Assembly (NCBI RefSeq): GCF_006345805.1
Contig: NC_043001.1
Location: 65,658,001-65,722,000 of the forward strand
From: Octopus sinensis
Taxonomy: Eukaryota
Direction of reading: 5' to 3'
Length of the DNA: 64,000 bases
The position numbers were made by a program, and so were the translations under genes. Positions within the stretch are counted from its first letter, which is position 1. Each line of letters opens with the position of its first letter. The notes under the pieces are model-generated. The model saw only the letters and a list, made by a program, of their open reading frames with translations, did not search any database and was not told where the DNA came from. This document shows positions 12,934 through 37,103 of the stretch, one piece after another.

Positions 12934-15900
12934 TTCATTTATTGGCCACCAGGGCCAATACAGTAGACATGGACAGAGGTTTTTTTGCACAAAACAACGA
13001 GTACAAAATTAAAACAATAAAAATAATATCAAACAAAAAGAATATAACAATGAAAGTTCTCCAGTAGGCGGGGTAACTACCTGGAGTTGACTCAGGTATC
13101 CCACCAATCCTGACCCACTTGACGCTTCGAGGGCATCCGGGAAGGGCACCGTTCTCCCTCTCAAATTCACTAGCCTACAGGCGCATTATTAGAGTAGGTC
13201 CACTCACACGGGTCATTTTCGCTACATTCACCCACCTTTTAACAAATGTACTGGGAGGCAGCACTCTCCCCGCCCTAATCTTCCTTTCCAAGTGAAAGTT
13301 GAAAAAAGTTGATGAAGGATTGGCCGAAAAGAAAAATGTTGGTCTTCAGTCCGTTCAACCTGGCCCACCGCTACTGCTATCAGACAAAGGAAAATTGCCT
13401 GCCCTTCTGGACCAGTGGAAGGCGGCGGATCGATCTTCGCTATGGGCTTCAGCTGATAGCCGGATCCATTTTACACATGATAACACTGTTCTGCATAACT
13501 CCAGAAGTTAGTAATGCAAGGACATTGGATGAGTGCGTGCAGAACGGTTTTGTCGGTCTGCGTGCATCTAGGGCAGGACCGTCTGACAGCATTTCCGTGC
13601 CTGTAGAATTTATCTCGAACCGGCAGTGCCCCCCGCTAGCACTGCTACGCAAGGGATTTCTGGAAGTTATTCTTCGTCTCCGCTTCGAAAGTCTTCCTGA
13701 ACAAACTGGTCAGTTCGACTTCGTCAACCCCAAGCGTCTCTCCAAGTGCGTCAACGCTCTTTCCCTCCACTAACCCTTTATAGAACTCAAGAGTGGATGT
13801 TCCACTGAGCGCCTTGCCCGACTGTTAAAGAGCAGTGAGTTCCTGGCAACATTCCAGATGCCAGTCACCCTGCCTCGGTCTATTCTTTACCTATGACTGC
13901 AGCTCAGTCAAGGAGACGAGTTGGAGAAAGGCCAAATTGATAAACGGTGACCACAGCTGTTCACCGCTTAGGCAGAATATTTGGAGATCCTGCAGCCTCA
14001 GCCCACGTCTGCTCATCATTAGCCACGGCACACACAGCCCTCCGCGCAGAAGGTGTTGGCAGCAGATGGAGCTCTACTTGGCGAGGCTCGAACGGGGGCA
14101 AGATACGACCGTCAAGCGGTAGTAGAAGACGGATGTGATGAACGTATTCGCCACCTCCACCCGACCTTTTAAAGACAGCTTCCTCATAGCTCATTTCTGG
14201 ATGAGACTGGCTACCCTATTCGTCACCTCGTATCAATTTTATCCACCTGGAGGTCTGCTCCGAACCAAACCCCAAGCAACTTTACCAGTCCGTCCGTCCA
14301 GCGCCTAATGACTCTGTTTGATGGCATAGACTTGCCTCTCCAGGTGCCGAGTTGTAAGCCCACCAACTTTCCTGGGTTAAGTTTTTCTCTCGTCAATTTT
14401 TCATATTTCTCCAATGATGTGCTGATCACCTCAATTTCTGAGGTGATCGACACCATCACGGTGATGTTGTCCGCATACGCCGACATAGCCCTCCTGCGTT
14501 CCGGTTCGTGCGGGATGCTCGAGTCAGTACGCACAGAAGGGAGGAGAGAGGGCACACTTGAGATCTGAAACGGTTCCGAGAGGTGGCCATTAACTTTGAC
14601 CACCGAACAGATGCTGCTGTGCACTGCATCGATCCAACCCCTGAAGACGGGGCCAGCTACTTTTAGGACAGCCTCTAGATATTGATGGTCGACCATATCG
14701 AATGATTTCGATTGATCTACATTGATCAGCGCCTCACCGAAACCAGGCTTACACCCTACCCTTCCTATGATGTATTGCAGGAGATGGAGGCTGTCGTGTA
14801 TGGATCTAGTCGTGGTTGCGCAGGTTTGTGCCTCTCCAACCAAATCCTCGACGACAAGCATCAACCTCTTTGCTAATACCTTGACCAAAATTTTAACCTC
14901 AGTGTTCCCGGCTCACAGAACTGGGAATACTCCGGTTCTGCTGTCAGTTGCAGTAGAGCGCTTCGAGGAAATCGGAGAACAAGTCTGGCATATTTACGTA
15001 AAGTTCATATGGAAGACCATCTAAACCGGTGAACTTATGTCTCGTACAGCCGACAAGGGCATCCTGAATTTTGGCTGAAGTTATCGGTCTTTCACAGCGT
15101 ACAGCGTCGGCCATCGAGAGACGCGACAAGGGACTGAAGGTAGGGACTGAAGTCCGCCACCATCTCCGCCCCGCTACTTTCTCCGAACAACCGAGCAAAG
15201 TGTTGGCGAAAGACCTCACACATCTGCCTGGAATCGTTCAGCTCGTGACTGTCTCGGTCCATCAAAGACCGAATTGTGATGATGCTACCACGCTACGCCT
15301 CCACCACGCGGGCCCATCAAGCAGCTTTGATCTCCTCGTTTCTTAGAGCACACGCCTTAGCTTTGTCAATGTCTCGCATTGAAGAATTGGTGTAATGTCA
15401 TTCTCACCGATAGCACGTCGGTTTCCATGCCACTGCATGTGGCCTCGTCTAATTTAGCTACTAATCCCTCCTCTTTTCTATTTTTTTCTAACGTTATTTC
15501 TTTGCTAAACCCTGTCGATATTAATCTAATCTCTCTTTTGAGAGCCGCACACCACCTTTTGTTGAAGATTCCCCCTGTCAACATTTGCTTAACTAAATTG
15601 TTGACCCGGTCCCTGTAAGCCTTACGTACCGGAAACGACATGTTCAGCTTCCAGTAGATCTTAACCCACGCGTTCTATCTAGGTCGATCTCACAGATTAC
15701 AAAATTATGGTCTGAATTGGCGACCGTTTTAAAAAGTGGACATCCTACACTATTACTATCTATTTTCCTAGTGAAAATTCTATCTATATACGATCTAGAT
15801 GAGCCTAAGCTGTTGGTCCAGGTCCACACTGGCGCATTAGGGAAATCTCGTCGGTACCTGTCAGACAATCTGAACTGGATGGTCATGTGCTTCAGGCTTT

Positions 15901-18085
15901 TGCACCCCTCTCTTATGCGATACAATCCCAGCGTTGGGCTAAGATTCCATTCCAGTCCCCTACAAACAGTAAAGGGCGAGAGTACTTAGAATGGATTCCA
16001 GACGCCTAAAGAGATCAGGCCGTTTGGCTCCGGTAGGATCGTAAACGATTACCAGTCTAAAGACACTACCTTCATTATTGTTCACATCGAGGACTACCAA
16101 TTTCCCATCGAACTTACCTCGCGATCTAGTTCTTTCTTAAATAGCACTATCACTCCATCTCCCATTCCCGACCGACTAACAGATGCAAAGGTCTGATAGT
16201 CGTCGGACACGGGGACCAGTGCTCGTGTATTAGAAATCCTGGTCTCACTGACAGAAATTATATCCAATTCTAGAGACTTTAGGTCGTTGAGCAGGCGACC
16301 TTGCTTCCAGGGCGTCCCCAGGCCTTGAAAGTTTAGAAATCCTACACTTAATATGGCCATGTTGGCAAGCAAAAGAGAGAAGGGAAAGGTTTACTTATCT
16401 CTAATGAAGTTCGGGTGCTTCGACTGCCATAATTAGTGGGGGATTTTTTTGGGAACCCATTTAAGAGCCTTGATGTGCGTCTCACATTCGGGGTTCTCAC
16501 TTTCTCCGGAAAGCTCTCTCAAATGTTTGGATAGGAATCGACCGACATTGGCACCAGAAGTAAATCTGGTACACGAAATGTGCTCAATTCAAATATGTTT
16601 CAAATTCAATGTTTTATGTTACGAGGGCCATCAGCTCTTCGATATCGCTTCTGATGAGTATGAAGTTGAGTGTTTTGTGTTGGTATTATTTAATTTGTTT
16701 GCTTGACTGTGGTGATGGTCTTGTTGTTGTTTCTGCTGTGTTTGCTGTGTTTGTGTGTGCTGTCAGTTTTAGATGTTTGTGTGAGTGTTTGTTCTTTGCC
16801 TTTGACTCCTTGCAATTTGTATTAGTTGGGTGCAGCGAGCTCGCAAATGAGTCGTTTCTCCACACGCGAAGCAATGCGGCCTTTTGCCCTCAGTCAGGAT
16901 ATGTATCACCGTACCGTTCTGGAGACGGTGTGGTCTGGGATTTTTTTAATACTTTCGGGTCTGATCAGGAAAAGCATCTCCAGGTCCGCCTCGCACCAGT
17001 CCTCCTTGGTAGTTCTTGTCCCCTCTGTCGGGACTGTATCCGTCCCTCCACGATTACGCATCCCAAATATCAAGTCCTGGTGGGATCCTAGGAATACAGG
17101 CATGTGCTGTTTCCCCGTGTGGGAGGGTGGGTACATTAATGATTTTGCTGGTTTTGCAAGGGGTCATTGAATGTTTCATATCGAGAGCTTCTGACTTAAG
17201 CAGCACCGAAATGGTACCGTATTGGTTGTCCCTCGCTCGATGTCATCTCTGATGTACCTTAACGCCGCTTCAGTATCGACTTGGACTATTAAAGCTGCTC
17301 TTTTCGTCTCTACTGAGATGCATCTGGAAAGCACCGTTTTCCTCTCCACTGCTTAAATTGCCTCTGACGAAATAGTTAGATTGGACTGTTTTTCTTGTCT
17401 AATGTTTCCATGTCTGCGTCAGCCTTTCACTCCTATTTGTAAGGCTCACGGTAATGCGTTGTTTCTTTTCCGCTGCCGCTGTCGCGAACGGGCTTTTGTT
17501 GTTGGTAATGTCCTCGCTGTTGTTGGTTGTTGTTGCTGTTGTAACGTTTGCTATCATTGTTGCTGTTGTTGTTATCGCTACTGCTGCAGCTGTTGCTGTC
17601 TCTTTCGTTATGATTGTTGCTACCACTACTACTGCTGCTGCGGCTGCTACTGTTGTCACTGCTACCGCAGTTACTGTTGCTGCCACTATTACTGTTACAA
17701 GGTGGACTTTCTTCTGTAATAGTCTCGTTTTTCTCCTCCCCTTCTCCGGTATTGTTGCCAGTAACGGACAGAAGGGGAGGGAAATCTTCAGCAGTCACTA
17801 AAATCATGGGAGGGGTTGTTTTCTTTATTCTCATTTCTTTCAAGACGCACTCCGCCATCTTGTTGAGTTATGTTTGTTTAAATCACCGAACATATTTGGT
17901 GGGCCGAATATAGCCCCCACAGGGGCTTAAACAACCGTAGAAAACCAGTAACAGGTACATAGTGTTTCTATTGACAACGTGAAATAAAATAAATAATACA
18001 AATAAGAACCAAATCGGTGTAAATAAATGTTTTAAGCTGCACCTACCTGGAGCGTTTGAAAACACGTCTTATGTATTCCGCGGTC
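12934..18085 (-). mobile_element. Tx1/L1-clade LINE copy A: full-length, heavily decayed (ORF2 ~13175-16360, ORF1 ~16390-17858)
   Basis: Fragmented homologs of the copy E proteins: GFLNFQGLGTPWKQG, SYIDRIF, SDH, DQSKSFD, AYADN, LLGVWFG. 3' end ATTGGCCACCAGGG. Microsatellite on both sides. Confidence 0.9.
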
Positions 18086-18221
18086 AATAGTAATGATGAT
18101 GATGATGATATTATTATTATTATTATTATTATTATTATTATTATTATTATTATTATTATTATTATTAATGATAATAATAATAATAATAATAATAATAATA
18201 ATAATAATAATAATAATAATA

Positions 18222-18335
18222 ATCCTTTCTACTGTAGCACAAGGCCCGAAATTTTGTGGAGAGGGGTATATCGATTTCATTGACTCCGAAAGGATGAAAG
18301 GCAAAGTCGACCTCAGCGGAACTTGAACTCAGAAC
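18222..18335 (-). mobile_element. 5'-truncated SINE family 2 copy inside the (AAT)n spacer
   Basis: ATCCTTTCTACTGTAGCACAAGGCCCGAAATT...GAAAGGATGAAAGGCAAAGTCGACCTC. Confidence 0.85.
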
Positions 18336-36885: not shown

Positions 36886-37082
36886 TTTGTAAATATGTGT
36901 GTGCAAAAATGTCAATTTCAAAAAAAAAAACAGCAATTTCACCCCGAAGGGGCAAAATTTTCGCCCAACCGACGAGCTCCGCAAGAAGCCGGTCGGTTTG
37001 GCTACAAAATATTAAAAAATATTCAAGCTTATTAAAAAATTTCCAATAAAATTGGCACAAAACTCACAGAGCTGATTCACGT

Positions 37083-37088
37083 ACGTCC
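37083..37088 (-). promoter_or_regulatory. DPE-like GGACGT of a putative internal Pol II promoter (also at 31209-31214 and 26162-26167)
   Basis: Motif lies exactly 15 nt inside the 5' junction in copies C, D and E. AGACGTG occurs at a similar place in copy A. Confidence 0.55.
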
Positions 37089-37103
37089 ATCGGCGTCGGA
37101 AGG

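Follow-up and report, generated by a model that had tools for sequence, protein, structure and literature searches.

In long interspersed nuclear elements (LINEs) that encode an apurinic/apyrimidinic (AP)-type endonuclease, target choice is usually credited to the endonuclease alone. The Dong element targets a TAA repeat, and the telomere arrays of HeT-A, TART, and TAHRE carry their newest copy at the 5' side. The HeT-A, TART, and TAHRE tandems arise by consecutive insertion (bioRxiv 10.1101/158386), and double insertion produces tandems of R1 in ribosomal DNA, of the P element, and of jockey (bioRxiv 10.1101/158386), as well as tandems of SINEU-3 around its target duplication (PMC4494074). 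Among Tx1-clade LINEs, microsatellites are targeted by Kibi ((TC)n), Koshi ((TTC)n), and crocodilian Tx1 elements ((TTCC)n or (TTTC)n) (PMC4494074). Octopus vulgaris is listed as having active L1-Tx1 and Dong-R4 families, with no targets given in the available part of that source (PMC13282606). Here we analyze a 64-kb stretch of the Octopus sinensis genome (the window; contig NC_043001.1), in which LINE copies with heads (5' ends) and tails (3' ends) in (AAT)n, or (ATT)n in the sense of the elements, follow one another from positions 12934 to 37103, and we compare them with their relatives throughout the 2.72-Gb genome.

The octopus elements resemble Kibi, Koshi, and the crocodilian Tx1 elements in having two open reading frames (ORFs), an AP-type endonuclease, a reverse transcriptase (RT), a strict simple-repeat target, and a fixed strand orientation. 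They differ in targeting (ATT)n rather than (TC)n or (TTC)n, and polarized stacking of copies against one another is not described for these elements in the available parts of PMC4494074. With the tandems of R1, P, jockey, and SINEU-3, as far as the same partial sources describe them, they share head-to-tail copies that derive from separate insertions and retain a remnant of the target between them: octopus junction spacers are pure or near-pure ATT, and the copies are independent (30 of 31 neighboring pairs are not mutual nearest relatives). Unlike in those systems, the triplets within a long tract, and more than 55,000 tracts, are equivalent, yet the head-adjacent triplets are favored, and with an age direction. 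Drosophila tandems of elements lacking long terminal repeats mostly have 5'-truncated ends, according to the portions of that literature at hand, whereas the octopus partners are mostly full length. Same-strand head-to-tail arrays, mixed subfamilies, and growth at the 5' side are shared with HeT-A, TART, and TAHRE, but the octopus stack is interstitial (65.66 to 65.72 Mb of 135.9 Mb).

Five copies, A to E, all on the minus strand as a preliminary description of this DNA had stated, were recovered by self-comparison and translated searches at 12934 to 18085 (A), 18411 to 23125 (B), 23400 to 26182 (C), 26201 to 31229 (D), and 31245 to 37103 (E). Copies C, D, and E belong to one young lineage, and A and B to two distant families.

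Insertion target

The young lineage has a strict (ATT)n insertion target. At least five ATT units directly follow the element at all 30 young 3' ends (the loci of the 3' search), and an ATT tract directly precedes it at 89 of the 90 loci that three head searches recovered, the sole exception being a truncated match. Among the 12 5'-truncated copies with a readable break (two further copies with unresolved breaks were excluded), the break adjoins an ATT-rich run in 8 but not in 3, and the remaining copy ends in an inversion; the 8 indicate that the tract existed before the insertion. The shortest ATT runs left by copies are 9 to 15 nt, and a target-site duplication is unreadable inside a triplet repeat.

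The older families occupy the same repeat less cleanly, with ATT before 23 of 30 A heads and after 18 of 30 B tails; after 30 A tails, AAT was found in 13 and ATT in 11. The A-family 3' ends (window 12867 to 12934; L241 to L270) often start with (AAT)n in the element sense and then change to (ATT)n, a switch that yields inverted AAT/ATT patches and that the young lineage lacks. Two young full-length copies, at C20:22.568 Mb and C9:74.701 Mb, have inserted at a short ATT-like site within the ORF1 of an older copy, and another young copy (L028, C3:13808953-13812924) has an inverted 5' part, presumably akin to the twin priming of L1.

Excess of head-to-tail junctions

Exact-pattern counts across the whole genome yielded 589 young tails and at least 55,415 targets, counted as ends of (ATT)9 followed by C or G; control patterns were run for heads (10) and junctions (0). 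The number of heads, about 150, is an estimate, 85 reverse rows being listed once and 201 forward rows recurring as many as four times. Strict tail-(ATT)n-head junctions numbered 24, compared with about 1.6 expected, a roughly 15-fold excess (Poisson P = 3 × 10^-20). Independent head searches place a tail directly upstream of 28 of 90 head rows, equivalent to 26 of 84 distinct places, and a head lies downstream in just 2 of 60 head loci, which were chosen mainly for the absence of an upstream tail. The figure of 7 of 29 from the 3' search was not used, as it is biased upward by a query that included 30 nt of the D head. Stacks are 2 to 5 copies long and are scattered across many chromosomes. 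A further array, on C1 at 75.07 to 75.08 Mb, lies outside the arrays read in detail, and the close tail pairs at C1:197.61 Mb and C3:23.60 Mb were rejected as direct junctions, being loose neighbors of short truncated copies. Tandems were absent from all 29 A tails, all 29 B tails, and all 29 A heads checked.

An excess of this kind might arise with no cue from the head, through plain double insertion in favored long tracts, a bias toward the downstream edge, and the survival of full-length copies in regions of low recombination. Double insertion yields tandems in many families, SINEU-3 among them (bioRxiv 10.1101/158386; PMC4494074, in the parts available), and the ATT runs of solo octopus copies are longer upstream than downstream (39 versus 32.5 nt, P = 0.027). 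In 20 of 24 junctions (hand count), the upstream partner is full length, whereas solo copies matched for age are full length in 9 of 22 cases (P = 0.005). Across the genome most copies are truncated, with full-length copies behind 26 of the first 100 tails (hand count). The excess of full-length partners would also follow if no head cue existed. But tails outnumber heads about 4:1, so that junctions with the older copy upstream should be about as frequent as those with the younger copy upstream, and the observed numbers are 4 and 15. Among the first 100 tail places, moreover, neighbors within 10 kb lay on the same strand in 8 cases and on opposite strands in 2, with no excess at 10 kb to 1 Mb, and the A and B families occupy the same tracts without forming tandems. 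We consider an origin without a head cue unlikely.

Order of insertion within stacks

Single-base frameshifts may in part reflect assembly error, and copies were therefore dated by substitutions only. In the window, the nearest head elsewhere matches E at 98%, D at 92%, C at 87%, A at 82%, and B at 80%. E is 0.2% from its nearest sibling, the nearest body to D is 1.7% away, and the best relatives at the 3' end reach 82 to 84% for A and 82% for B. Private nonsynonymous changes per 1,000 codons amount to 0.9 in E, 10.5 in D, and 13.0 in C, the last two not being separated by this measure (P = 0.63), and mismatches in shared columns split D from C (19 versus 68). The order of ages, from youngest to oldest, is thus E, far younger than D; D, younger than or equal to C; and then, much older, B and A, which are not separable. 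The steady decay across all five copies that the preliminary description reported was not confirmed: A and B are about equal in age, and D and C are only partly separated. Because the A and B families form no such tandems, the chronologically ordered array of five resolves into a C-D-E stack and two older tenants of the same repeat patch that stand outside the stacking process.

The direction of growth was scored in the window, 20 multi-stretch loci, and 60 head stretches, to which a fixed rule was applied that yielded 35 junctions at 22 loci, by counting mismatches on shared columns of ORF2 and the 3' untranslated region (UTR). The upstream copy was younger in 17 junctions and older in 5, with 10 ties and 3 unscored (P = 0.017), and 3 of the 5 upstream-older junctions involve copies less than 1% old. 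When the two copies differed by at least 1 point, the upstream copy was younger in 13 junctions and older in 2 (P = 0.007; 11 versus 2 by locus); inclusion of four hand-scored cases gave 15 versus 4 (P = 0.019), or 15 versus 5 with one ambiguous case (P = 0.041). In a tree of 93 ORF2 copies, the upstream copy of 20 pairs had the shorter terminal branch in 14 cases and the longer one in 5 (Wilcoxon test, P = 0.0013). Private nonsynonymous changes separated 8 of 24 pairs, 7 with the younger copy upstream and 1 reversed; private changes overall comprised 864 nonsynonymous and 345 synonymous, matching the expectation after insertion. Distances from E illustrate the gradient within individual stacks: 0.5, 1.1, and 5.1% in C5b; 3.3, 10.4, and 19.2% in C9a; and 1.2, 1.9, 2.8, and 12.1% in C20b. 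Other arrays thus repeat the arrangement first described in the window, with copies on the same strand and mostly with the youngest upstream. Spacers of 33 nt or less occur in 13 of 15 forward junctions and in 0 of 4 reversed ones, whose spacers are 42 to 63 nt (P = 0.004), and the reversals look as if they were ordinary insertions into the 3' tract of an old copy.

If stacks formed in a single step as concatemers, either by the RT jumping to the 3' end of a second RNA or by the copying of a whole read-through dimer, neighbors should be equal in age. Such a route needs a complete junction head and gives short spacers, and it may account for the 10 ties, which involve very young copies with different heads, and for the excess of full-length partners. 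But the downstream copy is older by 1 to 14 points in 13 junctions, in none of the 31 pairs with head data are the nearest relatives paired side by side elsewhere, and neither D nor C has a twin (best heads, 92% and 87%). One-step formation is therefore very unlikely.

Tandem duplication through unequal exchange between flanking (ATT)n tracts, or an error of assembly, is in our judgment extremely unlikely. The two flanking tracts form direct repeats, the members of one pair (C27a 13/14) are mutual nearest heads 1.0% apart, and many young copies carry 1-nt insertions or deletions typical of long-read error. Against this, 30 of 31 neighboring pairs are not mutual nearest heads, several neighbors are 20 to 29% apart in the head with ORF2 nearly the same, and an assembly artifact would produce no age direction. 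In the window, the heads of E and D differ by 12.6% and those of D and C by 25.1%, bearing out the earlier remark that the copies are too divergent for simple tandem duplication. Given the nearest-head relations of neighboring pairs, we rejected the view that stacks form chiefly by tandem duplication, by the transfer of dimers, or by template jumping. Four public runs mapped on 22600 to 37110 gave short contigs that fit many copies, none of them shown to bridge a junction. We regard it as highly probable that the stacks arose by sequential, polarized insertion.

Some very young pairs (C5:65793047-65803661, C4:72.58 Mb, C4:72.67 Mb, and C12:75.47 Mb) are 0.1 to 0.4% apart in ORF2 and about 20% apart in the head. 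These pairs represent two coactive subfamilies that differ in the 5' UTR and the start of ORF1, a pattern resembling promoter swapping.

Junction spacing and a candidate promoter

Junction spacers have a median length of 18 nt (22 of 35 are 18 nt or less), whereas the median of other 3' tracts is 33 nt (13 of 49 are that short; P = 0.0004). Those in the window consist of microsatellite only, as originally noted: 18 nt between C and D (26183 to 26200, (AAT)4-ACT-AAT) and 15 nt between D and E (31230 to 31244, (AAT)5). Tracts above the top copy of a stack range from 15 nt to 2.7 kb, and the shortness of junction spacers despite this range suggests that a positional cue lies near the head.

The heads contain a candidate for such a cue. 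The motif GAYGGAYRY occurs in 96 of 106 heads, and in 78 of these its GGACG begins 15 nt from the tract. It resembles RGWCGT, the downstream promoter element (DPE) of jockey, Doc, F, G, and I (PMC1636488), which is usually positioned at +28 to +32 (PMC4748587). An A exactly 27 nt upstream of the motif is present in 87 of the 96 heads, mostly within TTATT, and 79 heads combine the motif with a TTATT at the appropriate distance. In the head of E, the DPE-like sequence GGACGTAC (37081 to 37088, minus strand), whose promoter role is putative, lies 15 nt from the tract, and the A of a TTATT lies 27 nt upstream of it, inside the tract. The octopus motif thus shares with the Inr-DPE promoters of jockey, Doc, F, G, and I an RGWCGT-like sequence near the 5' end (PMC1636488 and PMC4748587, as far as available), but it is just 15 nt from the edge of the element, and DPE spacing would put the start of transcription 12 nt inside the tract, within the target repeat. 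New copies end 0 to 6 nt above this predicted start in 22 of 35 junctions. A conserved near-palindrome, CCAAT-TTT-ATTGG, lies about 45 nt into the head of E (37040 to 37060) and also in those of C and D, and may represent paired CCAAT boxes.

From the established biology of target-primed reverse transcription, the endonuclease would nick the (AAT)n strand, where the 3' (AUU)n of the RNA would pair, leaving at least 4 to 5 units downstream and renewing the tract upstream. The GGACGT of a resident head would act as a DPE, directing transcription to begin at TTATT, about 12 nt into the tract, and the open or factor-bound start site would attract the next insertion, such that separate insertions would build the stack mostly at its upstream end. 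That a promoter cue at the resident head draws insertions is a credible but tentative suggestion.

Sequential insertion could also be guided by the RNA itself. Read-through transcripts from sources already in arrays would carry (AUU)n and the next head and would pair best with targets composed of a tract plus a head, which would account for the restriction to same-lineage heads (0 of 29 at A heads), the short fixed spacers, and the polarity. Downstream target sequence in the RNA helps accurate priming in R1Bm and SART1Bm, according to the available part of PMC7265360. Young tails, though, precede at least 6 head types up to 25% apart, and an AATAAA 12 nt before the tract should stop most read-through. 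We think guidance by read-through RNA improbable.

Several observations weigh against promoter-guided, upstream stacking. Strict junctions hold only 24 of the 589 young tails (4%), most copies being solo, and solo copies, too, often leave just 15 to 18 nt downstream (13 of 49). Before a head resembling a short interspersed nuclear element (SINE), young tails show no clear enrichment (9 of 105 versus 19 of 441, P = 0.085). The model gives no account of the excess of full-length upstream partners. The A family carries (A/G)GACGTG in 17 of 30 heads, yet it forms no tandems (0 of 29), and its A lies at 25 or 28 nt upstream of the motif and at 27 nt in just 4 of 17; the 27-nt phase of the young lineage is inherited by descent and so amounts to one observation, not 87. 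With respect to age order, junctions inside one array lack independence, and young copies served to find the loci; the sign test on terminal branches alone gives P = 0.064, 16 of 24 pairs are inseparable by private nonsynonymous changes, and 4 or 5 clear reversals exist.

Taking these points together, we think that the stacks probably reflect an L1-group LINE that inserts into (ATT)n and, in a minority of cases, lands 12 to 24 nt before the 5' end of an older copy of its own lineage, likely guided by the promoter region there, so that growth is mostly at the upstream end. Repeated insertion just upstream of the previous copy, as first proposed, fits the roughly 15-fold excess over chance, but it does not extend to most copies, to the 4 or 5 reversals, or to the A and B families. 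Neither a random age order or orientation in other arrays nor a majority of copies outside (ATT)n was observed. Stacking is a real but minority behavior, present in C-D-E and at about twenty other loci. More tentatively still, the LINE may borrow its start from the host microsatellite and then target the start sites of resident copies, producing newest-first interstitial stacks that record the succession of promoter subfamilies.

The literature searched contained no (AAT)n-specific Tx1 family and no polarized interstitial stacks (Repbase was outside this search, and a catalogued family may exist there), nor did it describe for Tx1 elements a two-layer target choice involving both a repeat and the element's own promoter. 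The target is a further case of known microsatellite targeting, and the head-directed, age-ordered stacking is the new part. A roughly 15-fold, one-direction preference for sites before heads, when more than 55,000 equivalent (ATT)n tracts are at hand, points to a second cue, such as promoter state, a bound factor, or RNA pairing. Like nested insertions, stacks date subfamilies relative to one another without a clock, and they show how LINEs can accumulate without the destruction of earlier copies.

Identity of the elements

Copy E (5,859 nt) is intact and lies beside the 2.7-kb tract, as had been observed, with both ORFs open. Its ORF2 (31526 to 34960, minus strand; 1,144 amino acids) is predicted to encode an AP-type endonuclease, an RT, and a C-terminal zinc finger, with Pfam matches to Exo_endo_phos (E = 3.6 × 10^-17), RVT_1 (E = 9.2 × 10^-30), and zf-RVT (E = 1.3 × 10^-8). 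A profile of this ORF2 and 12 relatives matched human L1 ORF2p in the PDB (E = 3 × 10^-106 over 860 positions) and R2 (E = 3 × 10^-40), which places the element in the L1 group but not in a clade, few clades being represented in the PDB. The best named relative of ORF2 is a hypothetical protein of Argonauta hians (55%).

ORF1 (34999 to 36885, minus strand; 628 amino acids) has a predicted RNA-binding region and a visible CX2CX4HX4C knuckle, followed by a low-complexity Q/T/P tail. The zf-CCHC match (E = 0.047) is below the cutoff, a profile search of ORF1 gave no match to Transposase_22, and Atlas matches of 0.90 to 0.93 to CCHC and ZCCHC3-RBD clusters indicate a weak likeness. An ORF1 of the RRM and CCHC type, rather than Transposase_22, is linked to Tx1 in the available part of PMC5203782; no named Tx1 proteins appeared among the homolog-search, cluster, and Atlas matches. 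Copies A to E appear to be L1-group LINEs with Tx1-type anatomy. The preliminary description of an (AAT)n-specific Tx1 lineage thus stands with respect to the target, and the Tx1 label is by anatomy rather than by tree. A Dong/R4 identity, with a restriction-like endonuclease (RLE), was ruled out for A to E by the two ORFs and the N-terminal AP-type endonuclease.

Other features of the window

The remaining copies are degraded to various extents. Copy D is missing about 770 nt of ORF1 and has lost a single nucleotide at each of two places in ORF2, and copy C retains an intact head but has deletions of about 2.9 kb and 119 nt and one stop codon. Copies A and B are old and shattered, with 9 stops in 854 codons and 11 in 955 codons, respectively; A differs from E by about 28% in alignable ORF2 DNA, and its 3' tail begins with (AAT)n in the element sense, next to an inverted (AAT)17/(ATT)23 patch downstream of it (12801 to 12933). 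The other two spacers contain passengers, in agreement with the initial account, each of 160 nt. Between A and B (18086 to 18410), an (ATT)19-(AAT)19 patch, a SINE-like passenger within the repeat tract (18224 to 18384), and (AAT)8 occur; between B and C (23126 to 23399), there are (AAC)9, (AAT)22, a passenger (23221 to 23381) that probably derives from the 3' end of an RLE-type LINE (weak match, E = 0.3), and (AAT)6.

Upstream of E, the 2.7-kb (AAT)n tract (37104 to 39792) is shared with a 5'-truncated LINE on the plus strand (39792 to 42305) that contains an 805-amino-acid open frame and ends in (AAT)n. In this frame, CCHC, RHD-like, and PD..D..K motifs come after the RT, at residues 617, 645, 702, and 718. 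Its near-identical 3' ends (96 to 98%) recur, and (AAT)n follows 17 of 21 related 3' ends. By its motifs, this cotenant of the tract appears to be an RLE-type, Dong/R4-like element. Dong/R4 elements thus share the repeat with copies A to E, which differ in their AP-type endonuclease and opposite strand sense. Several Dong/R4-like copies elsewhere lie tail to tail with Tx1-like copies (L184, L219, L229, and L246).

Outside the array, another old fragment of the same LINE group, about 30% from E, lies on the minus strand at 62832 to 63528 and at 443 to 1090 counted from the right end, and a tandem duplication of 353 nt (99% identical) lies between AT repeats at 9715 to 10455.

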